Made by a program: the position numbers and the translations under genes. A model generated the notes under the pieces. The model was not told the origin of the DNA. It searched no databases and saw only the letters and a list, made by a program, of their open reading frames with translations. A stretch of DNA of 64,000 nt, taken from NCBI GenBank assembly GCA_964016885.1, contig OZ024742.1, positions 337,776,001-337,840,000 of the forward strand, in the 5' to 3' direction. The first letter of the stretch is position 1, and each line of letters opens with the position of its first letter. The stretch comes from Eledone cirrhosa (Eukaryota). This document shows positions 8,464 through 63,553 of the stretch, piece after piece.

Positions 8464-8496
<33 letters not shown>

Positions 8497-8610
8497 TACA
8501 TACATATATATATATATACATACATACATATATATATATATACATACATACATATATATATACATACATACATATATACATACATACATATATACATACA
8601 TATATATATA

Positions 8611-11800: not shown

Positions 11801-12684
11801 GTCAGAACTGGATGGAAAAAGTTCAGAGAGCTTATACCACTATTAGCCGCTAAAGGGTTCTCCCTAAAAGTGAAAGGCAGGTTGTATGATGCCTGCATAC
11901 GAACAGCAATGTTGCATGGCAGTGAGACCTGGGCATTGTGTGCAGAGGATATACGCAGACTAGAGAGGAACGAAGCTTGCATGCTCCGCTGGATGTGTAA
12001 CAGTAATATACGTGAACGGCAAAGTATAAACGAACTAAGGAAAAAATTAGAAATAAGAGGGATCAGATGTTGTTTACTCGAGAGAAGGCTACGTTGGTAT
12101 GGACACGTGATGTGCATGAAAGTCGATAGCTGTATAACAAGGTGCAGGGCAATAAAGATAGACGGTAGCCACGGAATAGGCAGACATAGAAAAACCTGGG
12201 ACGAGCTGATAAACTCCGACCTCACACACACCTCTCCAAGACAATGTCACTGGACCGAGACCTTTGGCGGTACTCAGTAATAGAGAAGACCCGCCTTACC
12301 TAAATACATAGTAAAACCTACTACAGCCAGTAGGCATCTCTAACAAAATACACCCCCGTCCCACCACCCACACCCCCATCCACACCACCCCCTCCTATGT
12401 AAAGTTATGTTGGTGCCACAACATCCAGGCCGAAACAAATGAGATCGTGTAGGTGTCACGACAAAAAAAAGACAGTCCACGCTGTAATGTGGCCGTGTAG
12501 GCAACACGGTAAAAACCTCCCAGTCCCACACTGTAAATGTGGTTGGTGTTAGGAAGGGCATCCAACTGTAGAAAACCTGCCAGACAGTCCTGTGCGAGCA
12601 AGACAATCACTCTTGCCTCAAGTGGGAAAACCCCCGTCCAAAACCATGCAAGCGTGGAACACGGACGTTAAACGTTGATGATGA
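8891..12684 (+). mobile_element. RTE family B, near full length, ORF broken by stops/frameshifts
   Basis: APE (VCCIQETRW, GDLNGH, SQVDYIL), RT ([22 protein letters not shown]), PHD-like finger, 3' UTR and (GAT)n tail. Confidence 0.95.
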
Positions 12685-12780
12685 TATATGTATATATCTA
12701 TGTATGTATATATATATATATATATATCTATGTATGTATATATATATATATATGTATGTATATATATATATATATGTATG

Positions 12781-12811
<31 letters not shown>

Positions 12812-12878
12812 ATATATATATATGTATGTATATATATATATATATGTACATATGTATATATATGTATATGTATATATG

Positions 12879-12911
<33 letters not shown>

Positions 12912-12961
12912 GTATGTATGTATGTATATATGTATGTATATATATATATATGTATGTATGC

Positions 12962-15166: not shown

Positions 15167-18100
15167 AATATTGAAGAGATAAGACACTTTGCCATTCTTC
15201 TCTGCTAAAATGTACCACTAGAGCTGACTCAAATTTTCCCAGCCAGCCATCCACCTAATCTACGAAGGTATTTTAGCCTACATATTGTCGTTAATATTAT
15301 GATGTTCCCTGCTGTATTAGCGTTAAATTTTCCCTGCTGTATTAGCGATAAATTTTCGAGGGTTTCTCTTAGTAGCTTTTTCATGTCGTTAATATTATGA
15401 TGTTCCCTGCTGTATTAGCGTTAAATTTTCCCTGCTGTATTAGCGATAAATTTTCGAGGGTTTCTCTTAGTAGCTTTTTCATGTCGTTAATATTATGATG
15501 TTCCCTGCTGTATTAGCGTTAAATTTTCCCTGCTGTATTAGCGATAAATTTTCGAGGGTTTCTCTTAGTAGCTTTTTCATGTCGTTAATATTATGATGTT
15601 CCCTGCTGTATTAGCGTTAAATTTTCCCTGCTGTATTAGCGATAAATTTTCGAGGGTTTCTCTTAGTAGCTTTTTTCATGACGTTATTATTGTTAATTTT
15701 ACTGATGTAGTATTAACTTATTAACTTGGATATTTACCATGCGGTATTCTAATCCTATTGTATCTCTCTCAGTTATTTACCATGCGACCCTCAGTTCCTA
15801 CCCCCCCCCTCTATGCACTTCTTTAAGGCTTACTACCCTGTCTTTAACCTAATTCATTCAATCTGAAAATATTGAAGAGATAAGACACTTTGCCATTCTT
15901 CTCTGCTAAAATGTACCACTAGAGCTGACTCAAATTTTCCCAGCCAGCCATCCACCTAATCTACGAAGGTATTTTAGCCTACATATTGTCGTTAATATTA
16001 TGATGTTCCCTGCTGTATTAGCGTTAAATTTTCCCTGCTGTATTAGCGATAAATTTTCGAGGGTTTCTCTTAGTAGCTTTTTCATGTCGTTAATATTATG
16101 ATGTTCCCTGCTGTATTAGCGTTAAATTTTCCCTGCTGTATTAGCGATAAATTTTCGAGGGTTTCTCTTAGTAGCTTTTTCATGTCGTTAATATTATGAT
16201 GTTCCCTGCTGTATTAGCGTTAAATTTTCCCTGCTGTATTAGCGATAAATTTTCGAGGGTTTCTCTTAGTAGCTTTTTCATGTCGTTAATATTATGATGT
16301 TCCCTGCTGTATTAGCGTTAAATTTTCCCTGCTGTATTAGCGATAAATTTTCGAGGGTTTCTCTTAGTAGCTTTTTCATGTCGTTAATATTATGATGTTC
16401 CCTGCTGTATTAGCGTTAAATTTTCCCTGCTGTATTAGCGATAAATTTTCGAGGGTTTCTCTTAGTAGCTTTTTCATGTCGTTAATATTATGATGTTCCC
16501 TGCTGTATTAGCGTTAAATTTTCCCTGCTGTATTAGCGATAAATTTTCGAGGGTTTCTCTTAGTAGCTTTTTCATGTCGTTAATATTATGATGTTCCCTG
16601 CTGTATTAGCGTTAAATTTTCCCTGCTGTATTAGCGATAAATTTTCGAGGGTTTCTCTTAGTAGCTTTTTCATGTCGTTAATATTATGATGTTCCCTGCT
16701 GTATTAGCGTTAAATTTTCCCTGCTGTATTAGCGATAAATTTTCGAGGGTTTCTCTTAGTAGCTTTTTTCATGACGTTATTATTGTTAATTTTACTGATG
16801 TAGTATTAACTTATTAACTTGGATATTTACCATGCGGTATTCTAATCCTATTGTATCTCTCTCAGTTATTTACCATGCGACCCTCAGTTCCTACCCCCCC
16901 CCCCCCTCTATGCACTTCTTTAAGGCTTACTACCCTGTCTTTAACCTAATTCATTCAATCTGAAAATATTGAAGAGATAAGACACTTTGCCATTCTTCTC
17001 TGCTAAAATGTACCACTAGAGCTGACTCAAATTTTCCCAGCCAGCCATCCACCTAATCTACGAAGGTATTTTAGCCTACATATTGTCGTTAATATTATGA
17101 TGTTCCCTGCTGTATTAGCGTTAAATTTTCCCTGCTGTATTAGCGATAAATTTTCGAGGGTTTCTCTTAGTAGCTTTTTCATGTCGTTAATATTATGATG
17201 TTCCCTGCTGTATTAGCGTTAAATTTTCCCTGCTGTATTAGCGATAAATTTTCGAGGGTTTCTCTTAGTAGCTTTTTCATGTCGTTAATATTATGATGTT
17301 CCCTGCTGTATTAGCGTTAAATTTTCCCTGCTGTATTAGCGATAAATTTTCGAGGGTTTCTCTTAGTAGCTTTTTCATGTCGTTAATATTATGATGTTCC
17401 CTGCTGTATTAGCGTTAAATTTTCCCTGCTGTATTAGCGATAAATTTTCGAGGGTTTCTCTTAGTAGCTTTTTCATGTCGTTAATATTATGATGTTCCCT
17501 GCTGTATTAGCGTTAAATTTTCCCTGCTGTATTAGCGATAAATTTTCGAGGGTTTCTCTTAGTAGCTTTTTTCATGACGTTATTATTGTTAATTTTACTG
17601 ATGTAGTATTAACTTATTAACTTGGATATTTACCATGCGGTATTCTAATCCTATTGTATCTCTCTCAGTTATTTACCATGCGACCCCCAGTTCCTACCCC
17701 CCCCCCCCCCCCCTCTATGCACTTCTTTAAGGCTTACTACCCTGTCTTTAACCTAATTCATTCAATCTGAAAATATTGAAGAGATAAGACACTTTGCCAT
17801 TCTTCTCTGCTAAAATGTACCACTAGAGCTGACTCAAATTTTCCCAGCCAGCCATCCACCTAATCTACGAAGGTATTTTAGCCTACATATTGTCGTTAAT
17901 ATTATGATGTTCCCTGCTGTATTAGCGTTAAATTTTCCCTGCTGTATTAGCGATAAATTTTCGAGGGTTTCTCTTAGTAGCTTTTTCATGTCGTTAATAT
18001 TATGATGTTCCCTGCTGTATTAGCGTTAAATTTTCCCTGCTGTATTAGCGATAAATTTTCGAGGGTTTCTCTTAGTAGCTTTTTTCATGACGTTATTATT

Positions 18101-21100
18101 GTTAATTTTACTGATGTAGTATTAACTTATTAACTTGGATATTTACCATGCGGTATTCTAATCCTATTGTATCTCTCTCAGTTATTTACCATGCGACCCT
18201 CAGTTCCTACCCCCCCCCCCTCTATGCACTTCTTTAAGGCTTACTACCCTGTCTTTAACCTAATTCATTCAATCTGAAAATATTGAAGAGATAAGACACT
18301 TTGCCATTCTTCTCTGCTAAAATGTACCACTAGAGCTGACTCAAATTTTCCCAGCCAGCCATCCACCTAATCTACGAAGGTATTTTAGCCTACATATTGT
18401 CGTTAATATTATGATGTTCCCTGCTGTATTAGCGTTAAATTTTCCCTGCTGTATTAGCGATAAATTTTCGAGGGTTTCTCTTAGTAGCTTTTTCATGTCG
18501 TTAATATTATGATGTTCCCTGCTGTATTAGCGTTAAATTTTCCCTGCTGTATTAGCGATAAATTTTCGAGGGTTTCTCTTAGTAGCTTTTTCATGTCGTT
18601 AATATTATGATGTTCCCTGCTGTATTAGCGTTAAATTTTCCCTGCTGTATTAGCGATAAATTTTCGAGGGTTTCTCTTAGTAGCTTTTTCATGTCGTTAA
18701 TATTATGATGTTCCCTGCTGTATTAGCGTTAAATTTTCCCTGCTGTATTAGCGATAAATTTTCGAGGGTTTCTCTTAGTAGCTTTTTCATGTCGTTAATA
18801 TTATGATGTTCCCTGCTGTATTAGCGTTAAATTTTCCCTGCTGTATTAGCGATAAATTTTCGAGGGTTTCTCTTAGTAGCTTTTTCATGTCGTTAATATT
18901 ATGATGTTCCCTGCTGTATTAGCGTTAAATTTTCCCTGCTGTATTAGCGATAAATTTTCGAGGGTTTCTCTTAGTAGCTTTTTCATGTCGTTAATATTAT
19001 GATGTTCCCTGCTGTATTAGCGATAAATTTTCGAGGGTTTCTCTTAGTAGCTTTTTTCATGACGTTATTATTGTTAATTTTACTGATGTAGTATTAACTT
19101 ATTAACTTGGATATTTACCATGCGGTATTCTAATCCTATTGTATCTCTCTCAGTTATTTACCATGCGACCCCCATTTCCTACCCCCCCCCCTCTATGCAC
19201 TTCTTTAAGGCTTACTACCCTGTCTTTAACCTAATTCATTCAATCTGAAAATATTGAAGAGATAAGACACTTTGCCATTCTTCTCTGCTAAAATGTACCA
19301 CTAGAGCTGACTCAAATTTTCCCAGCCAGCCATCCACCTAATCTACGAAGGTATTTTAGCCTACATATTGTCGTTAATATTATGATGTTCCCTGCTGTAT
19401 TAGCGTTAAATTTTCCCTGCTGTATTAGCGATAAATTTTCGAGGGTTTCTCTTAGTAGCTTTTTCATGTCGTTAATATTATGATGTTACCTGCTGTATTA
19501 GCGTTAAATTTTCCCTGCTGTATTAGCGATAAATTTTCGAGGGTTTCTCTTAGTAGCTTTTTCATGTCGTTAATATTATGATGTTCCCTGCTGTATTAGC
19601 GTTAAATTTTCCCTGCTGTATTAGCGATAAATTTTCGAGGGTTTCTCTTAGTAGCTTTTTCATGTCGTTAATATTATGATGTTCCCTGCTGTATTAGCGT
19701 TAAATTTTCCCTGCTGTATTAGCGATAAATTTTCGAGGGTTTCTCTTAGTAGCTTTTTTCATGACGTTATTATTGTTAATTTTACTGATGTAGTATTAAC
19801 TTATTAACTTGGATATTTACCATGCGGTATTCTAATCCTATTGTATCTCTCTCAGTTATTTACCATGCGACCCTCAGTTCCTACCCCCCCCCCCCCTCTA
19901 TGCACTTCTTTAAGGCTTACTACCCTGTCTTTAACCTAATTCATTCAATCTGAAAATATTGAAGAGATAAGACACTTTGCCATTCTTCTCTGCTAAAATG
20001 TACCACTAGAGCTGACTCAAATTTTCCCAGCCAGCCATCCACCTAATCTACGAAGGTATTTTAGCCTACATATTGTCGTTAATATTATGATGTTCCCTGC
20101 TGTATTAGCGTTAAATTTTCCCTGCTGTATTAGCGATAAATTTTCGAGGGTTTCTCTTAGTAGCTTTTTCATGTCGTTAATATTATGATGTTCCCTGCTG
20201 TATTAGCGTTAAATTTTCCCTGCTGTATTAGCGATAAATTTTCGAGGGTTTCTCTTAGTAGCTTTTTCATGTCGTTAATATTATGATGTTCCCTGCTGTA
20301 TTAGCGTTAAATTTTCCCTGCTGTATTAGCGATAAATTTTCGAGGGTTTCTCTTAGTAGCTTTTTTCATGACGTTATTATTGTTAATTTTACTGATGTAG
20401 TATTAACTTATTAACTTGGATATTTACCATGCGGTATTCTAATCCTATTGTATCTCTCTCAGTTATTTACCATGCGACCCTCAGTTCCTACCCCCCCCCC
20501 TCTATGCACTTCTTTAAGGCTTACTACCCTGTCTTTAACCTAATTCATTCAATCTGAAAATATTGAAGAGATAAGACACTTTGCCATTCTTCTCTGCTAA
20601 AATGTACCACTAGAGCTGACTCAAATTTTCCCAGCCAGCCATCCACCTAATCTACGAAGGTATTTTAGCCTACATATTGTCGTTAATATTATGATGTTCC
20701 CTGCTGTATTAGCGTTAAATTTTCCCTGCTGTATTAGCGATAAATTTTCGAGGGTTTCTCTTAGTAGCTTTTTCATGTCGTTAATATTATGATGTTCCCT
20801 GCTGTATTAGCGTTAAATTTTCCCTGCTGTATTAGCGATAAATTTTCGAGGGTTTCTCTTAGTAGCTTTTTCATGTCGTTAATATTATGATGTTCCCTGC
20901 TGTATTAGCGTTAAATTTTCCCTGCTGTATTAGCGATAAATTTTCGAGGGTTTCTCTTAGTAGCTTTTTCATGTCGTTAATATTATGATGTTCCCTGCTG
21001 TATTAGCGTTAAATTTTCCCTGCTGTATTAGCGATAAATTTTCGAGGGTTTCTCTTAGTAGCTTTTTTCATGACGTTATTATTGTTAATTTTACTGATGT

Positions 21101-22743
21101 AGTATTAACTTATTAACTTGGATATTTACCATGCGGTATTCTAATCCTATTGTATCTCTCTCAGTTATTTACCATGCGACCCTCAGTTCCTACCCCCCCC
21201 CTCTATGCACTTCTTTAAGGCTTACTACCCTGTCTTTAACCTAATTCATTCAATCTGAAAATATTGAAGAGATAAGACACTTTGCCATTCTTCTCTGCTA
21301 AAATGTACCACTAGAGCTGACTCAAATTTTCCCAGCCAGCCATCCACCTAATCTACGAAGGTATTTTAGCCTACATATTGTCGTTAATATTATGATGTTC
21401 CCTGCTGTATTAGCGTTAAATTTTCCCTGCTGTATTAGCGATAAATTTTCGAGGGTTTCTCTTAGTAGCTTTTTCATGTCGTTAATATTATGATGTTCCC
21501 TGCTGTATTAGCGTTAAATTTTCCCTGCTGTATTAGCGATAAATTTTCGAGGGTTTCTCTTAGTAGCTTTTTCATGTCGTTAATATTATGATGTTCCCTG
21601 CTGTATTAGCGTTAAATTTTCCCTGCTGTATTAGCGATAAATTTTCGAGGGTTTCTCTTAGTAGCTTTTTCATGTCGTTAATATTATGATGTTCCCTGCT
21701 GTATTAGCGTTAAATTTTCCCTGCTGTATTAGCGATAAATTTTCGAGGGTTTCTCTTAGTAGCTTTTTCATGTCGTTAATATTATGATGTTCCCTGCTGT
21801 ATTAGCGTTAAATTTTCCCTGCTGTATTAGCGATAAATTTTCGAGGGTTTCTCTTAGTAGCTTTTTCATGTCGTTAATATTATGATGTTCCCTGCTGTAT
21901 TAGCGTTAAATTTTCCCTGCTGTATTAGCGATAAATTTTCGAGGGTTTCTCTTAGTAGCTTTTTCATGTCGTTAATATTATGATGTTCCCTGCTGTATTA
22001 GCGTTAAATTTTCCCTGCTGTATTAGCGATAAATTTTCGAGGGTTTCTCTTAGTAGCTTTTTCATGTCGTTAATATTATGATGTTCCCTGCTGTATTAGC
22101 GTTAAATTTTCCCTGCTGTATTAGCGATAAATTTTCGAGGGTTTCTCTTAGTAGCTTTTTTCATGACGTTATTATTGTTAATTTTACTGATGTAGTATTA
22201 ACTTATTAACTTGGATATTTACCATGCGGTATTCTAATCCTATTGTATCTCTCTCAGTTATTTACCATGCGACCCTCAGTTCCTACCCCCCCCCCCTCTA
22301 TGCACTTCTTTAAGGCTTACTACCCTGTCTTTAACCTAATTCATTCAATCTGAAAATATTGAAGAGATAAGACACTTTGCCATTCTTCTCTGCTAAAATG
22401 TACCACTAGAGCTGACTCAAATTTTCCCAGCCAGCCATCCACCTAATCTACGAAGGTATTTTAGCCTACATATTGTCGTTAATATTATGATGTTCCCTGC
22501 TGTATTAGCGTTAAATTTTCCCTGCTGTATTAGCGATAAATTTTCGAGGGTTTCTCTTAGTAGCTTTTTCATGTCGTTAATATTATGATGTTCCCTGCTG
22601 TATTAGCGTTAAATTTTCCCTGCTGTATTAGCGATAAATTTTCGAGGGTTTCTCTTAGTAGCTTTTTTCATGACGTTATTATTGTTAATTTTACTGATGT
22701 AGTATTAACTTGGATATTTACCATGCGACCCTCAGTTCCTACC
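15167..22743 (+). repeat. Higher-order tandem array 1: 10 units of (~310-bp linker + n x 98-bp monomer), n = 4,8,5,2,7,4,3,4,8,2
   Basis: Unit starts (aatattgaagag) at 15167, 15868, 16965, 17772, 18279, 19250, 19955, 20559, 21260 and 22355. The monomer has a 25-bp internal repeat. Confidence 0.95.
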
Positions 22744-22986
22744 TCACAATTTCCCTCCCCCCCACCCCCACACACCACCATAGTCAATTCGACCAATCAA
22801 ACCTAGCATGCCATTTCCACTGCTGCTGCTGCTACTACCTGCCTAACTAACTCTCTCCTCCTCTGGCGCATCCCAACACACCCTGCCATTACCCCACCAC
22901 CACTGTCCTTCTAGCCCTCAATTTTCCCACCGTTAGGGATGGATGAGCTGGGAATACACGAGCAACTCTGAATCAATAGATGAAAT

Positions 22987-25900
22987 ATGAATCTGCGAGC
23001 TACCAAGCACCCACGTGAAGCGCCAACCCAGAGACCCTCCCCTACGAGTGTCGACAAATGCCCAAAACTCCGAGTTGGTACCATCAATGTAGGCTCAATG
23101 AAAGGAAGAGCAGGAGAAATCGTAGAAATGCTAGAGCGAAAGGAAGTTGATGTATGCTGTGTGCAAGAGACTAGATGGAGAGGAGGGTCTGCTAGAGTCC
23201 TTGTAGGAAAAAGCCAGTGCTACAAATTTTTCTGGGTGGGAAATGACGATGGGATGGGTGGTGTAGGTATACTATTAGCTGACAAGTGGGTAGATAAAGT
23301 AATCTCAGTGTACAGGGTAAATGCAAGAATCATTAAACTCAGACTAGTCCTGAATAAGACAATTACCACAATAATATCAGCTTACGCACCCCAATCGGGG
23401 CTGCCAGACGAACTTAAGGATAGGTTTTACGAGTCCCTAATACACACTACTGCTCTAACAGACGACAAGGACTTCCTAATCATTGCAGGAGATTTTAACG
23501 GACACGTAGGTAAACACTGCGACGGCTTCGATAGAGTACATGGAGGCCATGGAGTTGGCACAAGGAATGAGGAAGGATTCAGACTTCTAGAATTCTGCGA
23601 CGCCAATGACATGTCGATATGTAACACAAACTTTAAAAAACCCGACAACCACCTGATCACCTATAGATCAGGGGAGCACTCTAGTCAGTTAGATTTTATC
23701 CTCATCAGAGGACGTGACAGATGGACGGTCGTAAACACAAAAGCCTTCCCTAGTGAGGAATGTACATCCCAACATAGCTTAGTTGTCAGCGACCTCACGG
23801 TCAGAACTAGACGAGCCCTGAAACAGAGGCCAACCTGGAGAAGAAAGATCTGGAAGCTGAAAGTCCCCTCAACCAGTAACAGATTTAAAGATATTTTACT
23901 CAACGCCTACGACAGTAAAGAAGAACAGATAGAGACATTTAACGTAGAAGAGAACTGGGAGTTCCTAAAAAATAACTTACTAGAGGCGACGGATGAGGTT
24001 TGTGGCTGGAGTAAGACCTCAAGCAGGAGGAGAGTGACTTGGTGGTGGAACAATAAGGTAGATGAAGCAGTCAAGGCCAAGAGACAGGCATGGAAAGAAT
24101 GGAAGAACGGGGGGAGCAGGGTACATTACATAGAGACCAAGAGGGAAGCTAGGCGACAAGTATACTTAGCTAGGAGGGAAGCAGAGGATAGAAAATTCAA
24201 GCATGTTTTACAACGTGAGGACCAGAAACAGGAGGTATTCAAGATTGCGAGGCAGTGTGTCAGAGATAGTTGTGATGTCATTGGAGAGAAGTGTATCCGG
24301 AATGATAAAGGTGAGCTTGCCCTCACAAGTGCTGAGAAGAAAGATGCATGGAAGAGTCATTATGATAGATTACTAAATGAGGAGAATGCATGGGAAGAAG
24401 AGACCCTACCCCACGTAGACCCTATAGAGGGACCAGCAGTACAAGTCAGCGGCAGCGTAGTAAGTAAGGCAATCAGAGATATGAAGATAGGGAAGGCAAC
24501 CGGTCCATCGGGTATAGCTGCCGAGATGCTGAAGGCATCTGGGTCTGTAGGTCACACTATAACCACACGTATCGTTAACCAGGTAATACTAGAGGGGGCC
24601 ATACCAAAAGATTGGTGCAGTAGCATCATTGTCAACTGCTACAAAGGTAAAGGCGATGCACTAGATAGAGGAAACTATAGAGGTATAAAGTTGATGGACC
24701 AGGTCATGAAAGTAACAGAAAGAGTTATAGCACAGCTGATTAGGGACCGGGTGAATATAGACGAGATGCAATTTGGGTTTGTTCCAGGGAAAGGCACCAC
24801 TGATGCGCTCTTCCTTGTGAGGCAATTACAGGAAAAGTACCTAGCTAAAAGTAAGCCACTCTACTTGGCATTTGTCGACCTTGAGAAAGCCTTTGACAGA
24901 GTTCCACGTGCAGTAATCTGGTGGGCTCTTAGAAAACTAGGAGTAGATGAATGGCTTGTGAAAGCGGTACAAGCCATGTATAGGGGAGCAGTCAGCAAAG
25001 TTAGGATTGGCAATGAGTATAGCGAGGAATTTAGCGTACAGGTTGGGGTCCACCAGGGCTCTGTTCTTAGCCCTCTCCTGTTCATCATAGTCCTGCAGGC
25101 AATAACGGAGGAGTTTAAGACCGGATGCCCATGGGAACTCCTGTATGCTGATGACCTCGCACTCATAGCTGAATCTATGGTAGAACTAGAGAATAAATTC
25201 CAAACCTGGAAGCAGGGACTAGAGAGAAAGGGCCTCAAAGTCAACATGACAAAGACTAAGGTCCTTATAAGTAGACGAGAAAACAGAACCCAGATCCCCT
25301 CAGGGAAATGGCCTTGCTCAGTATGTAGGAAAGGTGTAGGTAGGAACTCCATTCTTTGCCCCAAATGCAAACAATGGGTACACAAGAGATGTAGCGGGAT
25401 CTCAGGAAGCTTAATTAAGAATGTAGGATTCACATGCAGCAGCTGTGCTGAAACAGCAAGCAAACAGCCACAGGAAACAAGTACCACCAATCTCTGGGAG
25501 GGCCCTGTAGAAACAGTAGACAGCTTCTGCTACCTAGGTGACCGAATTAGCAACGGAGGTGGGTGCTCAGAAAGTACAATAACTAGGGTAAGAACGGGAT
25601 GGAAGAAGTTTAGGGAACTACTACCACTGCTAGCTGCAAAAGGCTTCTCCCTCAGAATGAAAGGCAGACTGTATGATGCGTGTATCCGAACAGCGATGTT
25701 GCATGGTAGTGAGACCTGGGCGCTGAAGGTGGAAGACTTACGTAGATTAGAGAGAAACGAAGCCTGCATGCTCCGATGGATGTGTAACAGTAATATACGT
25801 GAACGACAAAGCATAAATGAATTGAGAGAGAGACTGAGCATAAGAGGAATCAAATGCTGCGTGCAGGAGAGGCGGTTACGCTGGTATGGACATGTGATGC

Positions 25901-46099: not shown

Positions 46100-47731
46100 T
46101 ATAGTTGCTGAGATGCTGAAGACATCAGGGGACGTAGGCACTAAACTGGTTGCACGCATCATCAATCAGGCTATATATGGTGGTGTCATACCCAAAGACT
46201 GGTGCAGCAGTATTCTCATAAATTGCTACAAAGGTAAAGGGGATGCTTTGGAGAGGAGCAATTATAGGGGTATAAAACTGATAGATCAGGTTATGAAAGT
46301 GGCAGAAAGGATTTTAGCACAACTAATTAGAGAAAGGGTCAAACTAGATGAGATGCAGTTTGGTTTTGTGCCTGGGAAGAGTACAACAGATGCCCTCTTC
46401 TTGGTGAGACAAATGCAAGAGAGGTTCTTAGAGAAGAATAAGCCACTATACTTAGCCTTTGTTGACCTAGAGAAGGCCTTTGATAGGGTACCCCGATCTG
46501 TCATCTGGTGGTCCCTAAGGAAGCTAGGTGTTGAGGAATGGCTTGTGAGGACAGTGCAAACTTTGTACAGAGGTACTCTCAGTAAAGTCAGGGTAGGAAT
46601 GGAGTTTAGTGAGGAATTCCAGATACAAGTAGGAGTACATCAGGGTTCGGTCCTCAGCCCGCTCTTGTTCATTATAGTCCTCCAAGCCATAACAGGGGAG
46701 TTTAAGACTGGCTGTCCATGGGAACTTCTCTATGCTGACGATCTGGCTCTTATAGCAGAATCAGTAGAGGAGCTAGAGAATAAATTCCGGCTATGGAAAC
46801 AGCAGTTGGAAGCAAGAGGACTGAGAGTAAATCTAGCTAAGACAAAAGTGTTGATGAGTAGAAAAGAGGACAAAACCCTGATTCCGTCAGGGAAATGGCC
46901 ATGTTCGATATGCAGAAAGGAACTGGCATAAATTCTATAAAATGCACACAATGCAGGTCCTGGGTACACAAGAGATGTAGCGAGATAGCAGGCAAACTAA
47001 CAGGTAGGGAGAAATATGTATGCAATAGATGTACAGGGAAATTAGACAGTAGAAGTCGCACTGATAGACACATTTTTCAAATGCGAGAGGACGCTATAGA
47101 AGTGGTGGATAGCTTCCGGTACCTAGGAGATCAGATTAGCATGGGAGGAGGGTGTTCCGAGGCCATAGTATCTAGAATAAGGACGGGTTGGAAGAAGTTT
47201 AGGGAGCTGCTTCCTCTGTTGACGAAGAAGGGTTTCTCCCTGCGTACGAAAGGCCGGTTGTATGATGCCTGTGTGAGGAGCGCGATGCTGCATGGTAGTG
47301 AGACATGGGCAGCAACCGCAGAGGATATGCGACGGCTGGAGAGAAATGAGGCAAGCATGCTCCGTTGGATGTGCAGTGTAAATGTGCGTGAACGACCCAG
47401 CATAAATGTGTTGAGAGAGAAACTGTGTCTGAGAGGGATAGAATGTAGTGTACGGGAGAGGAGACTGAGGTGGTATGGACATGTGATGCGCATGGAGGAT
47501 GACCGATGAGTGAAGAAGTGCCAGGAAATGCCAGTTGAAGGAAGACGTGGTAGAGGTAGACCACGAAAAACATGGGCGGAGGTGGTGAGAACAGACCTCA
47601 GATCATTGAAGCTCACGGTGGAGATGACGAGGGACCGTGACGAGTGGAGAGATGCTGTGCTGAATAAGACCCGTCCCACCCTTGCAAGCAGGGAAAAGCG
47701 GACGTAAAATGATGATGATGATGATGATGAT
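46100..47731 (+). mobile_element. RTE family C, 5'-truncated, frameshift and stop; essentially no 3' UTR
   Basis: ORFs 46083-46931, 46895-47509 and 47510-47707 give RT, PHD-like finger and C-terminus. The stop is followed almost directly by (GAT)n. Confidence 0.93.
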
Positions 47732-48535: not shown

Positions 48536-48918
48536 ATCATCATCATCATCATCATCACCGTTTTACGTCCGTTCTTCCACGCTAGCATGGGTTAGACGGG
48601 TTGTCCTGTTGTGGGCAGTGTCTGGTCGGCTGACCATGCCTTGCTCATACAGGAACTGATCTGGCTTGATTTCTACAGCTGGATGCCCTTCCTAACACCA
48701 ACCTCATTTACAGTGAGTGCTGGGTGCTTTTTCGTGGCGCCTACACGTCCACTTAACAGTGTGGGCTGGGTGCTTTTTTGCCGTGGCACCTCCACGACCA
48801 CCTTGCGGTGGGGGGGGGGGGGGGCATGTTCTTTATATGCTTCAGCATGTACCCATGGGAGGTCGGGTACCCTGTATTACTGCGTGACGCCAGAAGTCAC
48901 GGTCGTGTGTCATTGACT
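48536..48918 (-). mobile_element. RTE family A 3' end fragment
   Basis: KSMTHDRDF...MGTC, UTR and tail. Confidence 0.93.
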
Positions 48919-49217
48919 TATATACATATATATAAATATATATAAATATATATATATATAAATATAAATATATATATATACATAAATATATATATATATA
49001 TATATAAATATATATATATACATAAATATATATATATATATAAATATATATATATACATAAATATATATATATACATAAATATATATATATACATAAATA
49101 TATATATATACATAAATATATATATATACATAAATATATATATATACATAAATATATATATATATAAATATATATATATATAAATATATATATATATAAA
49201 TATATATATATATAAAT

Positions 49218-49557: not shown

Positions 49558-52500
49558 TATTAGCGTTAAATTTTCCCTGCTGTATTAGCGATAAATTTTC
49601 GAGGGTTTCTCTTAGTAGCTTCTTCATGTCGTTAATATTATGATGTTCCCTGCTGTATTAGCGTTAAATTTTCCCTGCTGTATTAGCGATAAATTTTCGA
49701 GGGTTTCTCTTAGTAGCTTCTTCATGTCGTTAATATTATGATGTTCCCTGCTGTATTAGCGTTAAATTTTCCCTGCTGTATTAGCGATAAATTTTCGAGG
49801 GTTTCTCTTAGTAGCTTTTTCATGTCGTTAATATTATGATGCTCCCTGCTGTATTAGCGTTAAATTTTCCCTGCTGTATTAGCGATAAATTTTCGAGGGT
49901 TTCTCTTAGTAGCTTTTTTCATGACGTTATTATTGTTAATTTTACTGATGTAGTATTAACTTATTAACTTGGATATTTACCATGCGGTATTCTAATCCTA
50001 TTGTATCTCTCTCAGTTATTTACCATGCGACCCTCAGTTCCTACCCCCCCCCCCCCCCTCTATGCACTTCTTTAAGGCTTACTACCCTGTCTTTAACCTA
50101 ATTCATTCAATCTGAAAATATTGAAGAGATAAGACACTTTGCCATTCTTCTCTGCTAAAATGTACCACTGAGCTGATTCAAATTTTCCCAGCCAGCCATC
50201 CACCTAATCTACGAAGGTATTTTAGCCTACATATTGTCGTTAATATTATGATGTTCCCTGCTGTATTAGCGTTAAATTTTCCCTGCTGTATTAGCGATAA
50301 ATTTTCGAGGGTTTCTCTTAGTAGCTTCTTCATGTCGTTAATATTATGATGTTCCCTGCTGTATTAGCGTTAAATTTTCCCTGCTGTATTAGCGATAAAT
50401 TTTCGAGGGTTTCTCTTAGTAGCTTCTTCATGTCGTTAATATTATGATGTTCCCTGCTGTATTAGCGTTAAATTTTCCCTGCTGTATTAGCGATAAATTT
50501 TCGAGGGTTTCTCTTAGTAGCTTCTTCATGTCGTTAATATTATGATGTTCCCTGCTGTATTAGCGTTAAATTTTCCCTGCTGTATTAGCGATAAATTTTC
50601 GAGGGTTTCTCTTAGTAGCTTTTTCATGTCGTTAATATTATGATGTTCCCTGCTGTATTAGCGTTAAATTTTCCCTGCTGTATTAGCGATAAATTTTCGA
50701 GGGTTTCTCTTAGTAGCTTTTTTCATGACGTTATTATTGTTAATTTTACTGATGTAGTATTAACTTATTAACTTGGATATTTACCATGCGGTATTCTAAT
50801 CCTATTGTATCTCTCTCAGTTATTTACCATGCGACCCTCAGTTCCTACCCCCCCCCCTCTATGCACTTCTTTAAGGCTTACTACCCTGTCTTTAACCTAA
50901 TTCATTCAATCTGAAAATATTGAAGAGATAAGACACTTTGCCATTCTTCTCTGCTAAAATGTACCACTGAGCTGATTCAAATTTTCCCAGCCAGCCATCC
51001 ACCTAATCTACGAAGGTATTTTAGCCTACATATTGTCGTTAATATTATGATGTTCCCTGCTGTATTAGCGTTAAATTTTCCCTGCTGTATTAGCGATAAA
51101 TTTTCGAGGGTTTCTCTTAGTAGCTTCTTCATGTCGTTAATATTATGATGTTCCCTGCTGTATTAGCGTTAAATTTTCCCTGCTGTATTAGCGATAAATT
51201 TTCGAGGGTTTCTCTTAGTAGCTTCTTCATGTCGTTAATATTATGATGTTCCCTGCTGTATTAGCGTTAAATTTTCCCTGCTGTATTAGCGATAAATTTT
51301 CGAGGGTTTCTCTTAGTAGCTTTTTCATGTCGTTAATATTATGATGTTCCCTGCTGTATTAGCGTTAAATTTTCCCTGCTGTATTAGCGATAAATTTTCG
51401 AGGGTTTCTCTTAGTAGCTTTTTTCATGACGTTATTATTGTTAATTTTACTGATGTAGTATTAACTTATTAACTTGGATATTTACCATGCGGTATTCTAA
51501 TCCTATTGTATCTCTCTCAGTTATTTACCATGCGACCCTCAGTTCCTACCCCCCCCCCTCTATGCACTTCTTTAAGGCTTACTACCCTGTCTTTAACCTA
51601 ATTCATTCAATCTGAAAATATTGAAGAGATAAGACACTTTGCCATTCTTCTCTGCTAAAATGTACCACTGAGCTGATTCAAATTTTCCCAGCCAGCCATC
51701 CACCTAATCTACGAAGGTATTTTAGCCTACATATTGTCGTTAATATTATGATGTTCCCTGCTGTATTAGCGTTAAATTTTCCCTGCTGTATTAGCGATAA
51801 ATTTTCGAGGGTTTCTCTTAGTAGCTTCTTCATGTCGTTAATATTATGATGTTCCCTGCTGTATTAGCGTTAAATTTTCCCTGCTGTATTAGCGATAAAT
51901 TTTCGAGGGTTTCTCTTAGTAGCTTCTTCATGTCGTTAATATTATGATGTTCCCTGCTGTATTAGCGTTAAATTTTCCCTGCTGTATTAGCGATAAATTT
52001 TCGAGGGTTTCTCTTAGTAGCTTTTTCATGTCGTTAATATTATGATGTTCCCTGCTGTATTAGCGTTAAATTTTCCCTGCTGTATTAGCGATAAATTTTC
52101 GAGGGTTTCTCTTAGTAGCTTTTTTCATGACGTTATTATTGTTAATTTTACTGATGTAGTATTAACTTATTAACTTGGATATTTACCATGCGGTATTCTA
52201 ATCCTATTGTATCTCTCTCAGTTATTTACCATGCGACCCTCAGTTCCTACCCCCCCCCCCCTCTATGCACTTCTTTAAGGCTTACTACCCTGTCTTTAAC
52301 CTAATTCATTCAATCTGAAAATATTGAAGAGATAAGACACTTTGCCATTCTTCTCTGCTAAAATGTACCACTGAGCTGATTCAAATTTTCCCAGCCAGCC
52401 ATCCACCTAATCTACGAAGGTATTTTAGCCTACATATTGTCGTTAATATTATGATGTTCCCTGCTGTATTAGCGTTAAATTTTCCCTGCTGTATTAGCGA

Positions 52501-54799
52501 TAAATTTTCGAGGGTTTCTCTTAGTAGCTTCTTCATGTCGTTAATATTATGATGTTCCCTGCTGTATTAGCGTTAAATTTTCCCTGCTGTATTAGCGATA
52601 AATTTTCGAGGGTTTCTCTTAGTAGCTTCTTCATGTCGTTAATATTATGATGTTCCCTGCTGTATTAGCGTTAAATTTTCCCTGCTGTATTAGCGATAAA
52701 TTTTCGAGGGTTTCTCTTAGTAGCTTCTTCATGTCGTTAATATTATGATGTTCCCTGCTGTATTAGCGTTAAATTTTCCCTGCTGTATTAGCGATAAATT
52801 TTCGAGGGTTTCTCTTAGTAGCTTCTTCATGTCGTTAATATTATGATGTTCCCTGCTGTATTAGCGTTAAATTTTCCCTGCTGTATTAGCGATAAATTTT
52901 CGAGGGTTTCTCTTAGTAGCTTTTTCATGTCGTTAATATTATGATGTTCCCTGCTGTATTAGCGTTAAATTTTCCCTGCTGTATTAGCGATAAATTTTCG
53001 AGGGTTTCTCTTAGTAGCTTTTTTCATGACGTTATTATTGTTAATTTTACTGATGTAGTATTAACTTATTAACTTGGATATTTACCATGCGGTATTCTAA
53101 TCCTATTGTATCTCTCTCAGTTATTTACCATGCGACCCTCAGTTCCTACCCCCCCCCCTCTATGCACTTCTTTAAGGCTTACTACCCTGTCTTTAACCTA
53201 ATTCATTCAATCTGAAAATATTGAAGAGATAAGACACTTTGCCATTCTTCTCTGCGAAAATGTACCACTGAGCTGATTCAAATTTTCCCAGCCAGCCATC
53301 CACCTAATCTACGAAGGTATTTTAGCCTACATATTGTCGTTAATATTATGATGTTCCCTGCTGTATTAGCGTTAAATTTTCCCTGCTGTATTAGCGATAA
53401 ATTTTCGAGGGTTTCTCTTAGTAGCTTCTTCATGTCGTTAATATTATGATGTTCCCTGCTGTATTAGCGTTAAATTTTCCCTGCTGTATTAGCGATAAAT
53501 TTTCGAGGGTTTCTCTTAGTAGCTTCTTCATGTCGTTAATATTATGATGTTCCCTGCTGTATTAGCGTTAAATTTTCCCTGCTGTATTAGCGATAAATTT
53601 TCGAGGGTTTCTCTTAGTAGCTTCTTCATGTCGTTAATATTATGATGTTCCCTGCTGTATTAGCGTTAAATTTTCCCTGCTGTATTAGCGATAAATTTTC
53701 GAGGGTTTCTCTTAGTAGCTTTTTCATGTCGTTAATATTATGATGTTCCCTGCTGTATTAGCGTTAAATTTTCCCTGCTGTATTAGCGATAAATTTTCGA
53801 GGGTTTCTCTTAGTAGCTTTTTTCATGACGTTATTATTGTTAATTTTACTGATGTAGTATTAACTTATTAACTTGGATATTTACCATGCGGTATTCTAAT
53901 CCTATTGTATCTCTCTCAGTTATTTACCATGCGACCCTCAGTTCCTACCCCCCCCCCCCCCTCTATGCACTTCTTTAAGGCTTACTACCCTGTCTTTAAC
54001 CTAATTCATTCAATCTGAAAATATTGAAGAGATAAGACACTTTGCCATTCTTCTCTGCTAAAATGTACCACTGAGCTGATTCAAATTTTCCCAGCCAGCC
54101 ATCCACCTAATCTACGAAGGTATTTTAGCCTACATATTGTCGTTAATATTATGATGTTCCCTGCTGTATTAGCGTTAAATTTTCCCTGCTGTATTAGCGA
54201 TAAATTTTCGAGGGTTTCTCTTAGTAGCTTCTTCATGTCGTTAATATTATGATGTTCCCTGCTGTATTAGCGTTAAATTTTCCCTGCTGTATTAGCGATA
54301 AATTTTCGAGGGTTTCTCTTAGTAGCTTCTTCATGTCGTTAATATTATGATGTTCCCTGCTGTATTAGCGTTAAATTTTCCCTGCTGTATTAGCGATAAA
54401 TTTTCGAGGGTTTCTCTTAGTAGCTTCTTCATGTCGTTAATATTATGATGTTCCCTGCTGTATTAGCGTTAAATTTTCCCTGCTGTATTAGCGATAAATT
54501 TTCGAGGGTTTCTCTTAGTAGCTTCTTCATGTCGTTAATATTATGATGTTCCCTGCTGTATTAGCGTTAAATTTTCCCTGCTGTATTAGCGATAAATTTT
54601 CGAGGGTTTCTCTTAGTAGCTTTTTCATGTCGTTAATATTATGATGTTCCCTGCTGTATTAGCGTTAAATTTTCCCTGCTGTATTAGCGATAAATTTTCG
54701 AGGGTTTCTCTTAGTAGCTTTTTTCATGACGTTATTATTGTTAATTTTACTGATGTAGTATTAACTTGGATATTTACCATGCGACCCTCAGTTCCTACC
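49558..54799 (+). repeat. Higher-order tandem array 2: n = partial+3,5,4,4,6,5,6
   Basis: Unit starts at 50117, 50916, 51617, 52320, 53217 and 54020. The array begins mid-monomer at the (TA)n junction. Confidence 0.95.
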
Positions 54800-55042
54800 T
54801 CACAATTTCCCTCCCCCCCACCCCCACACACCACCATAGTCTATTCGACCAATCAAACCTAGCATGCCATTTCCACTGCTGCTGCTGCTACTACCTGCCT
54901 AACTAACTCTCTCCTCCTCTGGCGCATCCCAACACACCCTGCCATTACCCCACCACCACTGTCCTTCTAGCCCTCAATTTTCCCACCGTTAGGGATGGAT
55001 GAGCTGGGAATACACGAGCAACTCTGAATCAATAGATGAAAT

Positions 55043-58000
55043 ATGAATCTGCGAGCTACCAAGCACCCACGTGAAGCGCCAACCCAGAGACCCTCCCCTA
55101 CGAGTGTCGACAAATGCCCAAAACTCCGAGTTGGTACCATCAATGTAGGCTCAATGAAAGGAAGAGCAGGAGAAATCGTAGAAATGCTAGAGCGAAAGGA
55201 AGTTGATGTATGCTGTGTGCAAGAGACTAGATGGAGAGGAGGGTCTGCTAGAGTCCTTGTAGGAAAAAGCCAGTGCTACAAATTTTTCTGGGTGGGAAAT
55301 GACGATGGGATGGGTGGTGTAGGTATACTATTAGCTGACAAGTGGGTAGATAAAGTAATCTCAGTGTACAGGGTAAATGCAAGAATCATTAAACTCAGAC
55401 TAGTCCTGAATAAGACAATTACCACAATAATATCAGCTTACGCACCCCAATCGGGGCTGCCAGACGAACTTAAGGATAGGTTTTACGAGTCCCTAATACA
55501 CACTACTGCTCTAACAGACGACAAGGACTTCCTAATCATTGCAGGAGATTTTAACGGACACGTAGGTAAACACTGCGACGGCTTCAATAGAGTACATGGA
55601 GGCCATGGAGTTGGCACAAGGAATGAGGAAGGATTCAGACTTCTAGAATTCTGCGACGCCAATGACATGTCGATATGTAACACAAACTTTAAAAAACCCG
55701 ACAACCACCTGATCACCTATAGATCAGGGGAGCACTCTAGTCAGTTAGATTTTATCCTCATCAGAGGACGTGACAGATGGACGGTCGTAAACACAAAAGC
55801 CTTCCCTAGTGAGGAATGTACATCCCAACATAGCTTAGTTGTCAGCGACCTCACGGTCAGAACTAGACGAGCCCTGAAACAGAGGCCAACCTGGAGAAGA
55901 AAGATCTGGAAGCTGAAAGTCCCCTCAACCAGTAACAGATTTAAAGATATTTTACTCAACGCCTACGACAGTAAAGAAGAACAGATAGAGACATTTAACG
56001 TAGAAGAGAACTGGGAGTTCCTAAAAAATAACTTACTAGAGGCGACGGATGAGGTTTGTGGCTGGAGTAAGACCTCAAGCAGGAGGAGAGTGACTTGGTG
56101 GTGGAACAATAAGGTAGATGAAGCAGTCAAGGCCAAGAGACAGGCATGGAAAGAATGGAAGAACGGGGGGAGCAGGGTACATTACATAGAGACCAAGAGG
56201 GAAGCTAGGCGACAAGTATACTTAGCTAGGAGGGAAGCAGAGGATAGAAAATTCAAGCATGTTTTACAACGTGAGGACCAGAAACAGGAGGTATTCAAGA
56301 TTGCGAGGCAGTGTGTCAGAGATAGTTGTGATGTCATTGGAGAGAAGTGTATCCGGAATGATAAAGGTGAGCTTGCCCTCACAAGTGCTGAGAAGAAAGA
56401 TGCATGGAAGAGTCATTATGATAGATTACTAAATGAGGAGAATGCATGGGAAGAAGAGACCCTACCCCACGTAGACCCTATAGAGGGACCAGCAGTACAA
56501 GTCAGCGGCAGCGTAGTAAGTAAGGCAATCAGAGATATGAAGATAGGGAAGGCAACCGGTCCATCGGGTATAGCTGCCGAGATGCTGAAGGCATCTGGGT
56601 CTGTAGGTCACACTATAACCACACGTATCGTTAACCAGGTAATACTAGAGGGGGCCATACCAAAAGATTGGTGCAGTAGCATCATTGTCAACTGCTACAA
56701 AGGTAAAGGCGATGCACTAGATAGAGGAAACTATAGAGGTATAAAGTTGATGGACCAGGTCATGAAAGTAACAGAAAGAGTTATAGCACAGCTGATTAGG
56801 GACCGGGTGAATATAGATGAGATGCAATTTGGGTTTGTTCCAGGGAAAGGCACCACTGATGCGCTCTTCCTTGTGAGGCAATTACAGGAAAAGTACCTAG
56901 CTAAAAGTAAGCCACTCTACTTGGCATTTGTCGACCTTGAGAAAGCCTTTGACAGAGTTCCACGTGCAGTAATCTGGTGGGCTCTTAGAAAACTAGGAGT
57001 AGATGAATGGCTTGTGAAAGCGGTACAAGCCATGTATAGGGGAGCAGTCAGCAAAGTTAGGATTGGCAATGAGTATAGCGAGGAATTTAGCGTACAGGTT
57101 GGGGTCCACCAGGGCTCTGTTCTTAGCCCTCTCCTGTTCATCATAGTCCTGCAGGCAATAACGGAGGAGTTTAAGACCGGATGCCCATGGGAACTCCTGT
57201 ATGCTGATGACCTCGCACTCATAGCTGAATCTATGGTAGAACTAGAGAATAAATTCCAAACCTGGAAGCAGGGACTAGAGAGAAAGGGCCTCAAAGTCAA
57301 CATGACAAAGACTAAGGTCCTTATAAGTAGACGAGAAAACAGAACCCAGATCCCCTCAGGGAAATGGCCTTGCTCAGTATGTAGGAAAGGTGTAGGTAGG
57401 AACTCCATTCTTTGCCCCAAATGCAAACAATGGGTACACAAGAGATGTAGCGGGATCTCAGGAAGCTTAATTAAGAATGTAGGATTCACATGCAGCAGCT
57501 GTGCTGAAACAGCAAGCAAACAGCCACAGGAAACAAGTACCACCAATCTCTGGGAGGGCCCTGTAGAAACAGTAGACAGCTTCTGCTACCTAGGTGACCG
57601 AATTAGCAACGGAGGTGGGTGCTCAGAAAGTACAATAACTAGGGTAAGAACGGGATGGAAGAAGTTTAGGGAACTACTACCACTGCTAGCTGCAAAAGGC
57701 TTCTCCCTCAGAATGAAAGGCAGACTGTATGATGCGTGTATCCGAACAGCGATGTTGCATGGTAGTGAGACCTGGGCGCTGAAGGTGGAAGACTTACGTA
57801 GATTAGAGAGAAACGAAGCCTGCATGCTCCGATGGATGTGTAACAGTAATATACGTGAACGACAAAGCATAAATGAATTGAGAGAGAGACTGAGCATAAG
57901 AGGAATCAAATGCTGCGTGCAGGAGAGGCGGTTACGCTGGTATGGACATGTGATGCGTATGAAGGATGACAGCTGCATAAAAAGGTGCAGAGCACTAGAA

Positions 58001-58162
58001 GTTGATGGAAACCGCGGAGTGGGGAGACCCAAGATGACTTGGGATGAGGTGATAAAAGCCGACCTTACCCAACTACACCTCTCAAAGTCAATGACACACG
58101 ACCGTGACTTCTGGCGTCACGCAGTAATACAGGGTACCCGACCTCCCATGGGTACATGCTGA
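55043..58162 (+). CDS. RTE-clade protein, 1039 aa, intact
   Basis: One visible amino-acid difference (GFDRV to GFNRV) from 22987-26106. Confidence 0.97.
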
Positions 58163-58177
58163 AGCATATAAACAATA

Positions 58178-58967
58178 TGTGTATGTATATATATGTATAT
58201 ATATGTGTATGTATATATATGTATATATATATGTGTATGTATATATATCTATATATATGTGTATGTATATATATGTGTATGTATATATATATGTGTATGT
58301 ATATATATGTGTATGTATATATATATGTGTATGTATATATATGTGTATGTATATATATATGTGTATGTATATATATGTATATATGTGTATGTATATATAT
58401 GTATATATGTGTATGTATATATATGAATATATATGTATATATATGTGTATGTATATATATATGTGTATGTATATATATGTATATATATATATATGTATGT
58501 ATATATATATATATGTATGTATATATATATATATGTATGTATATATATGTATATATATATATATGTGTATGTATATATATGTATGTATATATATGTATAT
58601 ATACGTATGTATATATATGTATATATATATGTGTATGTATCTATATGTATATATATATGTGTATGTATATATATATATATGTGTGTATGTATATATATGT
58701 ATATATATATGTGTGTGTATGTATATATATGTATATATATATGTGTATGTTTGTATATATATGTGTATGTATATATATGTATATATATGTGTGTTTGTAT
58801 ATATATGTATATATATATGTGTATGTATATATATATGTGTATGTATATATATGTGTGTATGTATATATATGTGTGTATGTATATATATGTATATATATAT
58901 GTGTATGTATATATATGTGTATATATATGTGTATATATATGTGTATATATATGTGTATATATGTGTG

Positions 58968-61457: not shown

Positions 61458-63553
61458 AGGCCGCTCAAACGAGGTTGTAGAAATGCTTGAACGTAAGGAG
61501 GTTGATGTCTGCTGGATCCAAGAGACCAGGTGGAGAGGCGGGTCTGCTAGATTCATTGTGGGTAAAAAATGATGCTATAAGCTTTTCTGGGTGGGAAATG
61601 ACAATGGGCTGGGTGGGGTAGGAATCATGTTAGCAGAAAAATGGGTGGATAAGATAATAGACGTAAATAGAGTAAACGACAGAATAATTAAAATAAGACT
61701 TGTTCTAAATAGAACTACTGTGACGATAATATCTGCGTACGCGCCCCAATCCGGACTGCCTGGCGCTATAAAAGACACTTTCTATGAGACACTGATGCTC
61801 ACTACCTCCTAAATAACCGACAGTGACTATATAATTATTGCTGGCGACCTAAATGGTCACGTTGGACAACATTGTGACGGCTATGATGAAATCCATGGAG
61901 GCTATGGGTTTGGTACTAGAAATGAGGAAGGCTCCAGAATCCTGGAATTCTGTGACGCAAATAACCTAACAATCTGTAACACTAACTTAAAAAAACGAGA
62001 CAATCACTTGATCACCTACAGATCAGGGGAACATACCAGCCAGGTAGATTATATCCTTACCAGAAGACGTGACAGAGTGACTGTTGTAAACACTAAATCC
62101 CTCCCTCATGAAGAATGCACCTCCCAACATAGACTGATAATTAGCGACCTCATAGTCAGGACAAGACGTACCCGACAGCAGAAGAGGACTATCCTCAAGA
62201 GAAAAATATGGAAGCTAAAGGACCCCACAGCCAGAAATAGCAGTGATGGCGAGTACGCCATCATCATCATTTAGTACACACTTCTCCCCAACAATATCAC
62301 GGTTTTCCTTGACACATTGCCTAGCAATGTGTCAAGGAAAACCGTGATATTGTTGGGGAGAAGTGTGTACTAAATGATGATGGCGTACTCGCCATCACTG
62401 ATGCTGATAAGAAGGTCGCTTGGAAGTGTCACTACGAGAGGCTACTAAATGAGGAGAATAAATGGGAGAAGGATAGTCTCCCCCAGATCGATCCAATAGA
62501 GGGACCAGCAGTGTTAGTTGAAGGTAGTATAATAAGTAAGGCAATCAAAGATATGAAGACGGGTAAGGCGGCTGGGCCTTCGGAAATAGTTGCTGAGATG
62601 CTGAAGGCCTCTGGAACGGTGGGACACACCATGGTCACCCAGATAGTAAACCAAGTCATACAGAATGGGGTTGTTCCGAAGGACTGGCGTAGCAGCATCA
62701 TCATTAACTGTTACAAGGGTAAAGGAGACGCCCTAGATAGGAGTAACTATAGAGGCATTAAATTAATCGACCAGGTCATGAAGGTCACGGAAAAAGTAAT
62801 AGCGCAACTAATCAGAGAGAGAATCGATCTAGATGAAATGCAGTTCGGGTTTGTTTCAGGCAAAAGTACCACAGACGCTCTTTTCATTGTACGACAACTA
62901 CAGGAGAAGTACCTAGCTAAAAGTAAACCCCTATACTTAGCCTTTGTCGACTTGGAGAAAGCCTTCGACAGAGTCCCCCGTTCCATTATCTGGTGGGCTC
63001 TTAGAAAACTAGGTGTTGATGAATGGCTTGTGAGAGCTATACAAGCCATGTATAAAGAAACAGTCAGCAAGGTTAGAATTAACAACGAATATAGTGAAGA
63101 GTTTAGCGTAAAAGTTGGTGTTCATCGGGGCTCTGTTCTTAGCCCCCTACTATTCATTATTGCTCTTCAGGCTATAACAGTGGAGTTCAAGATGGGCTGC
63201 TCGTGGGAACTCCTATACGCAGCTGATCTAACGCTCATAGCTGAATCAATGGCCGAGCTAGAGAAGAAATTCCAAACATGGAAGCACGGCCTAGAATCAA
63301 AAGGCCTTAAAATTAACCTGTCTAGTTTGTAGGAAGGAAAATAGGGCGCCGGTCCCATCCGGGAAATGGCCATGCTCAGTGTGTAGGAAAGGAGTAGGTA
63401 GACACTGCATTTTATGTCCCAAATGCAAAGTATGGGTGCATAAAAGATGTAGTGGGATCACAGGTAAGCTAACTAAGAACATAGATTTTATATGTAACCG
63501 GTGCTCTGGTGCAATAAGTAGCAGCAAGTGCCCACAGAATACTAGCTCATTCC
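61458..63553 (+). mobile_element. Degenerate RTE family B (APE to PHD-like finger) with internal deletion/fold-back
   Basis: Collinear with 9290-11703; stops present; YADD changed to YAAD. Confidence 0.93.
62241..62400. repeat. Long palindrome, ~80-bp arms, 3-nt loop
   Basis: cagtgatggc...gacacattgc cta gcaatgtgtc...gccatcactg. Confidence 0.95.

Follow-up and report, generated by a model that had tools for sequence, protein, structure and literature searches.

The stretch of Eledone cirrhosa DNA analyzed here (64,000 nucleotides, contig OZ024742.1, forward-strand positions 337,776,001 to 337,840,000; hereafter the window) comes from a 3.0-Gb genome in which AT microsatellites and fragments of long interspersed nuclear elements (LINEs) abound. 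It holds two copies of one LINE, copy 1 at window positions 15170-26395 and copy 2 at 49558-58182. The 5' end of both copies is a two-level tandem array, in which blocks of 98-bp monomers are separated by 308-bp linkers and a tether closes the array. Monomers are coded by their ends as c (cttcttca), t (ctttttca) or T (cttttttca). The bodies of the two copies differ at 4 of 3,480 bases, and the open reading frames (ORFs) are as close to identical as the original prediction had claimed, since only two of these differences lie within them and a single amino acid is changed. A very young RTE-like LINE has inserted here twice independently, and arrays 1 and 2 form the 5' ends of its copies, the features of which are as follows (UTR, untranslated region; Inr, initiator; DPE, downstream promoter element).

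49558..54727, + strand: array 2, with 7 blocks of 98-bp monomers (4, 5, 4, 4, 6, 5 and 6 monomers; order c..c t T) and 6 linkers of ~308 bp
53827..54138, + strand: last full linker of array 2, with a variable poly-C tract inside
54006..54040, + strand: predicted internal promoter, with Inr TCATTC (A+1 at 54008), G at +24 and DPE-like AGACAC at +28..+33
54066..54098, + strand: 33-bp hotspot of fixed variants spanning linker bases 236-268, at +59..+91 relative to the predicted start
54728..54799, + strand: tether of copy 2, which closes array 2 and corresponds to a linker front carrying two deletions
55040..58162, + strand: intact ORF of copy 2, 1040 aa from stop to stop, with an ATG at 55043
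58163..58182, + strand: 3' UTR stub of copy 2; the last ~270 bp and the (GAT)n tail are missing here
15170..22671, + strand: array 1, with one partial and 9 full linkers and monomer blocks of 4, 8, 5, 2, 7, 4, 3, 4, 8 and 2
22672..26395, + strand: rest of copy 1, comprising tether, 5' UTR, ORF (22984-26106), 3' UTR and (GAT)n tail

The remaining full linkers of array 2 begin at 49923, 50727, 51428, 52129, and 53028, and its 5' end is truncated at monomer base 29, with an AT microsatellite adjoining. Array 1 begins ~12 bases past a predicted start site.

In both copies the ORF encodes an APE-type endonuclease (Exo_endo_phos), a reverse transcriptase (RVT_1), and a PHD finger. LINEs of the RTE clade have a single ORF with an APE endonuclease and a reverse transcriptase, lack ORF1, and carry a 3' tail of short tandem repeats instead of poly(A). 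Here, one 1040-aa ORF contains both enzymes without an ORF1, a scan of the array and tether for ORFs of 100 aa found none, and a (GAT)n tail is present at the copies displayed but absent from copy 2. Judged by these features of the clade, the single ORF and (GAT)n tail fit an RTE-like element. Membership in the L1 clade was rejected because the element has neither an ORF1 nor a poly(A) tail. Among the best 120 matches, no relative exceeds 55% identity, and most of them are unnamed. We also rejected a dispersed satellite undergoing concerted evolution, as the sampled arrays, which were mostly located through the tether and are biased accordingly, are joined to LINE bodies and differ between loci.

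Array-specific variants in the window and across the family

The two arrays carry different variants, each repeated throughout its own array. All 6 linkers of array 2 read ACCACTGAGCTGATTC (at 50164, 50963, 51664, 52367, 53264, and 54067), while all 10 linkers of array 1 (9 full and one 5'-truncated) read ACCACTAGAGCTGACTC, as the original prediction had stated. The monomer order that it described also held, with the 34 monomers of array 2 arranged as cctT, ccctT, cctT, cctT, cccctT, ccctT, and cccctT, and c is absent from the 47 monomers of array 1. Its description of the arrays as fully homogenized stands insofar as these variants fill the arrays, but the linkers vary in their poly-C tract and single units have private changes. 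In array 1, one change is common to 2 of the 9 linkers and one monomer has a 25-bp deletion. Genome-wide, the linker variant of array 1 occurs 10 times, every one in array 1, and a search with the array-1 5' UTR for a second copy of this type found none among 40 scored. The c monomer occurs 21 times, 20 of them in array 2 and one at a copy on C9 (L100).

To place the two arrays within their family, we used the tether junction, which has 365 exact genomic matches and 545 with up to 3 mismatches; family size is taken as at least 365 copies. The sample consists of 179 stretches of 10 kb drawn non-randomly from the listed matches, mainly on C1 and C2, and the main counts cover 128 copies having a full body. 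Copies without a full body were left out of the counts, as were L075 (gapped and error-rich), L077 (which duplicates L076), and L104, L136, and L137 (not parsed), and L079 and L141 were excluded from the hotspot and mosaic counts.

Array-specific homogenized variants are the rule across the family. A comparison of divergence within arrays, between arrays, and in the ORF had been proposed along with the original prediction, and we found linkers to diverge by 0.29% within and 1.66% between copies (48 copies with two or more linkers), and bodies by 0.37% (n=94). The 44 copies with three or more linkers have 23 fixed linker haplotypes, and in 12 of the 44 the fixed haplotype is unique within the sample. 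Bodies that are identical beyond base 110 occur in nine copies, the arrays of which all differ and in several cases are internally uniform, and L027 and L030 likewise combine matching bodies with differing arrays.

Each lineage had been suggested to rebuild its array very quickly from one unit. Speed is supported by the identical-body copies with different, internally uniform arrays and by private haplotypes fixed across 4-12 units, which indicate that arrays are rebuilt faster than one body substitution; the source is likely one or two units. The further suggestion that copy-number change is confined to the 5' monomers of a unit did not survive comparison with other copies, which vary middle or 3' monomers (L027, L030, L048, and L052). 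The duplicated part is the middle monomer in L030, two monomers at the 3' end in L027, and the 3' monomers in L048. The pattern of array 2, in which only c varies in number, has a probability of 0.2-0.6 under a simple in-register model, and in-register duplication by its nature preserves the order within blocks.

All 20 copies of the oldest subfamily (L160-L179) have at most 2 full linkers and one monomer per unit, and multi-monomer blocks and long arrays are traits of younger subfamilies. Tether-like fronts were found copied upstream in arrays. Two unusual structures were also observed, namely a 62-bp tether piece in 14 tandem copies (L112:4390-6119) and an aberrant amplification of 20 short tether-linker-monomer units (L018).

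Predicted promoter and hotspot in the linker

Every linker contains TCATTC with its A at linker base 178 and the same spacing between Inr and DPE, so that array 2 has further predicted A+1 positions at 50105, 50904, 51605, 52308, and 53205. The motifs were recognized by the consensus letters of the Inr and DPE. In insect LINE promoters the DPE occupies +28 to +32 relative to the start (PMC4748587), and the likeness of the present linker to such promoters is one of motif and spacing. Judging from the sequence, transcription is predicted to start at the Inr+DPE of any linker, and an RNA initiated in an ORF-proximal linker would hold just one or two units, a bottleneck. Among 57 linker-truncated copies, 14 have a 5' end that falls in linker bases 175-189 (scan P 5e-5), with 1-10 linkers downstream. 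Most 5' ends in this cluster lie at +4 to +9, and AT-rich microhomology to the target may also favor joining.

Variants fixed throughout a copy are concentrated in the 33-bp hotspot, which holds 14 of the 28 distinct copy-fixed linker variants versus 6 of 55 single-unit variants (scan test 0/5,000; Fisher 2e-4). Since the hotspot window was picked post hoc, it should be noted that the scan test corrects for this choice and the Fisher p does not. Both linker differences between arrays 1 and 2 fall inside the hotspot, and the change in array 1 yields TGACTCA, which we take to be AP-1-like, in the only such linker in the sample. Validation with 20 older copies gave no new fixed variants, a set that is uninformative because the arrays of older copies are short. 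Selection on a factor-binding site within the hotspot is a lead.

Timing of array growth and its possible mechanisms

Private substitutions in the ORF are near-neutral (105 of 343 synonymous versus 26.7% expected, p 0.11), and private counts therefore mostly measure time since insertion. Shared ORF substitutions depart from neutrality, with 31 of 61 synonymous (p 6e-5). We compared the single-unit substitutions in the linkers of each array with the number expected from the private body rate of the same copy (star test). Arrays of 3-8 linkers (n=34) had 47 single-unit substitutions versus 36.5 expected, a ratio of 1.29 (bootstrap 0.87-1.88). Arrays of 9-14 linkers (n=7, array 1 included) had 5 versus 20.9 expected and the two longest, L079 and L141, had 11 versus 117, giving 16 versus 138 for all arrays of nine or more. 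Multi-unit blocks are repeated in L079 and L141. Copies with no private body substitution (n=29) already have 0-8 full linkers, with three or more in 13 of them and nine or more in none. Array length shows no increase with copy age (Spearman -0.11, p 0.22, 128 copies), and the segmental duplicates L139 and L140, which are 10 substitutions apart, have equal numbers of units. When DNA turnover was simulated at a rate sufficient for two units to become five within half a body substitution, 7-13% of the single-unit changes of old arrays were left; those seen in old arrays number 14 versus 17.9 expected (78%). We read these results as two phases, with growth of up to ~8 units at or near insertion followed by DNA-level block duplication mainly in long arrays.

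The extreme case among the long arrays is L079 (with L125 and L146-L150; G000:C1:422727598-422790500), an otherwise ordinary copy with a 63-kb array and ~169 units, each with a predicted start site. Here a LINE promoter has become an array of satellite size.

Some arrays are mosaics. Ten of 78 multi-linker copies combine variants known from other copies, and in L039, L058, and L129 multi-site haplotypes are mixed although these copies have just 0-1 private body changes. L100, the sole carrier of c besides copy 2, shows it once, in the monomer that opens its ORF-proximal block, and has in common with copy 2 a rare body allele with 11 genomic occurrences. Its body is recombinant, with young-type alleles to ~base 2136 and older-type alleles from 2338. 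A c that arose beside the ORF and was then copied 5'-ward fits these observations. Four-gamete tests indicated recombination or homoplasy in 28 of 180 linker-body pairs and 14 of 153 within-body pairs, with no clear break at the array. The last block was unlike the mode in 13 of 26 cases versus 7.7 expected, which is suggestive only. Private variants extend through the last linker and block, and in old copies they occupy the tether too. Jumps solely at the 5' end of the RNA were rejected, since the unhomogenized last unit that they predict was not seen. Taken as a whole, the patterns agree with in-register template switching by the reverse transcriptase, within or between RNAs, although the DNA level can give the same products.

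On balance, we lean toward arrays regrowing from one or two units around the time of insertion, likely by template switching of the reverse transcriptase, with long arrays likely enlarged later at the DNA level. A start at the Inr+DPE of the ORF-proximal linker would give an RNA with one or two units, and the variant of these units would become fixed. During target-primed reverse transcription, the cDNA end would re-anneal in register to a repeat on the same or another RNA of the family, and recopying would yield up to ~8 units. In-register switching would preserve monomer order (c..c t T) and vary monomer number anywhere within a block, while switching between RNAs would produce arrays of mixed haplotypes. 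After insertion, arrays of nine or more units would grow by duplication of multi-unit blocks, reaching as much as 63 kb; the block pattern itself is observed and the mechanism presumed. Array 2 would accord with regrowth at insertion, and array 1, with its 9 full linkers, may include later growth at the DNA level. More tentatively, and at somewhat less than even confidence, the reverse transcriptase may recopy its own promoter unit several times per insertion, within and between RNAs, in a telomerase-like manner. The stack would then be reset from one or two units, new variants would sweep the array in one generation, and the 33-bp element would evolve under selection, possibly escaping a host repressor.

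Several points weigh against regrowth at insertion. No donor-daughter pair was seen, and for this reason the promoter and template switching are put forward here as inferred steps; long RNAs from DNA-expanded donors that are missing from this haplotype are also conceivable. In mouse, daughter L1s were 0.6-1.8 monomers shorter than their donors in 5 of 5 cases (bioRxiv 2022.08.06.500894), and de novo LAVA insertions showed no change in their variable number tandem repeat (VNTR) (PMC4432496). The size bins of the star test were set after data inspection, arrays that remain short are selected for few events, and old arrays may be short through shrinkage. With 15 private body changes, L161 still has two linkers of identical sequence (0 single-unit changes versus 3.2 expected; 0 versus 4.2 in the new set), so DNA-level homogenization reaches short arrays too. 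Finally, the allele common to L100 and copy 2 lies at a CpG and recurs on other backgrounds.

A purely DNA-level process would have slippage or unequal exchange act in resident donors, long RNAs from upstream promoters transmit the arrays, and reverse transcription only shorten them, which is the classical view of mouse L1. The depletion of single-unit changes and the repeated blocks in arrays of nine or more linkers favor it, together with the 63-kb reach of L079, the identical linkers of L161, the 1-10 linkers carried by copies beginning at the predicted start site, and the DNA-level remodeling of SVA/LAVA VNTRs (PMC4432496). We nevertheless consider it doubtful as the sole process. Copies with identical bodies lack common block patterns from the 3' end, the variant of array 1 has no second genomic carrier, short and medium arrays are star-like, segmental duplicates are unchanged, and array length is flat with age; the mixed haplotypes of the youngest copies would require frequent ectopic conversion.

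Of the three mechanisms named in the original prediction, template switching and unequal exchange both seem to be active, at different times and array sizes, while rolling-circle copying fits worst because block sizes vary and haplotypes are mixed within one array. Exactly periodic arrays do exist (L013, with 3 monomers repeated five times, L038, and L041), as does L018 with its 20 short units, but in arrays 1 and 2 block size changes from unit to unit, and period-2 to -4 patterns and mixed haplotypes are present, making it improbable that each array is built by rolling-circle copying of a one-unit circular RNA or DNA. An assembly or polishing artefact as the source of the uniformity is very improbable: c was not found in contigs of two runs (other or unknown samples, with no piece spanning an array), and raw restriction-site-associated DNA reads of two other samples had a non-T at the c site in 7 of 1,104 and 1 of 807 cases, which errors could explain, but polishing would favor the family majority rather than variants found nowhere else, private changes and distinct poly-C lengths are kept per unit at the body rate, and L100 carries c at an unlinked locus.

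Related systems and surrounding features

Jockey, Doc, G, I, and F of Drosophila and SART1/TRAS1 of Bombyx have one Inr+DPE promoter per element, whereas here the predicted promoter is repeated in every unit. Common to both is the combination of an Inr with a DPE, which in those elements lies at +28 to +32 (PMC4748587). By analogy, the array may work like the monomer promoter of mouse L1 with its tether (PMC5381506), although the element is not L1. As in the 5' UTR of mouse L1Md (A, Tf, and Gf) and rat L1, a variable 5' tandem array of units, here predicted to bear promoters, is joined to a tether, and position-dependent unit types, rare very long arrays, and mosaic arrays are likewise found in rodent L1 (PMC6454616; PMC5381506; bioRxiv 2022.08.06.500894). 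Unlike rodent L1, this LINE has a single ORF, no ORF1, a PHD finger, and a (GAT)n tail. Its array is two-level, with 98-bp monomers inside 400-1100-bp units, and has an AT-rich Inr+DPE in contrast to the CpG-rich YY1 monomers of L1, with variants fixed per copy rather than per subfamily. A gain of units at insertion is indicated here, whereas mouse daughters lost monomers.

SVA/LAVA VNTRs resemble the present arrays as ordered repeat-unit arrays in a non-LTR (long terminal repeat) element that are longer in younger subfamilies (PMC4432496, PMC12593883), but they are internal, belong to non-autonomous elements, are ordered per subfamily, and are remodeled at the DNA level, with de novo insertions unchanged. 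The reverse transcriptases of R2 and L1 are able to move between templates (PMC2718515, PMC8857657), whereas for the enzyme of this LINE we infer template jumping from its arrays. The literature searches made here turned up no account of a promoter unit being recopied repeatedly in register, and, subscription journals, Repbase entries, and supplements aside, no such RTE array was found, passages of two octopus repeat papers included.

How LINEs with consumable promoter arrays regain their units has been left open for mouse L1, where the mechanism of monomer regrowth has been called unclear (PMC6454616) and template switching a speculation (bioRxiv 2022.08.06.500894). None of the mouse proposals, be it unequal exchange, second-strand mispairing, or template switching, has quantitative support. 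Hundreds of near-identical copies with marked nested units make regrowth time readable from sequence in this LINE, and the family also displays a path by which a LINE promoter can reach the size of a satellite array (63 kb) and, in the hotspot, a candidate site of promoter-host conflict. New here are the timing test and the 33-bp hotspot of fixed changes, as indirect evidence on an open mechanism.

Upstream of array 2, at 48545-48919 (- strand), lies a 375-bp piece from the 3' end of a family member, (GAT)n tail included. It overlaps by ~95 bp with copy 2, which lacks its 3' end and stops in the stub at 58163-58182. The piece and the 3' loss of copy 2 are explained either by a separate truncated insertion plus a deletion or by an inversion. 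Elsewhere in the window, a 7.3-kb AT-type microsatellite occupies 28314-35646, and at 36086-37201 a 200-N gap precedes an exact duplication of 472 bp, which may be an assembly join. Other pieces of the same family (99-100% identical) and of related families (72-77%) lie at 6043-14032, 27383-28306, 41349-41977, 46100-47503, and 61477-63479. Most such pieces sit inside AT microsatellites, suggesting a target preference.

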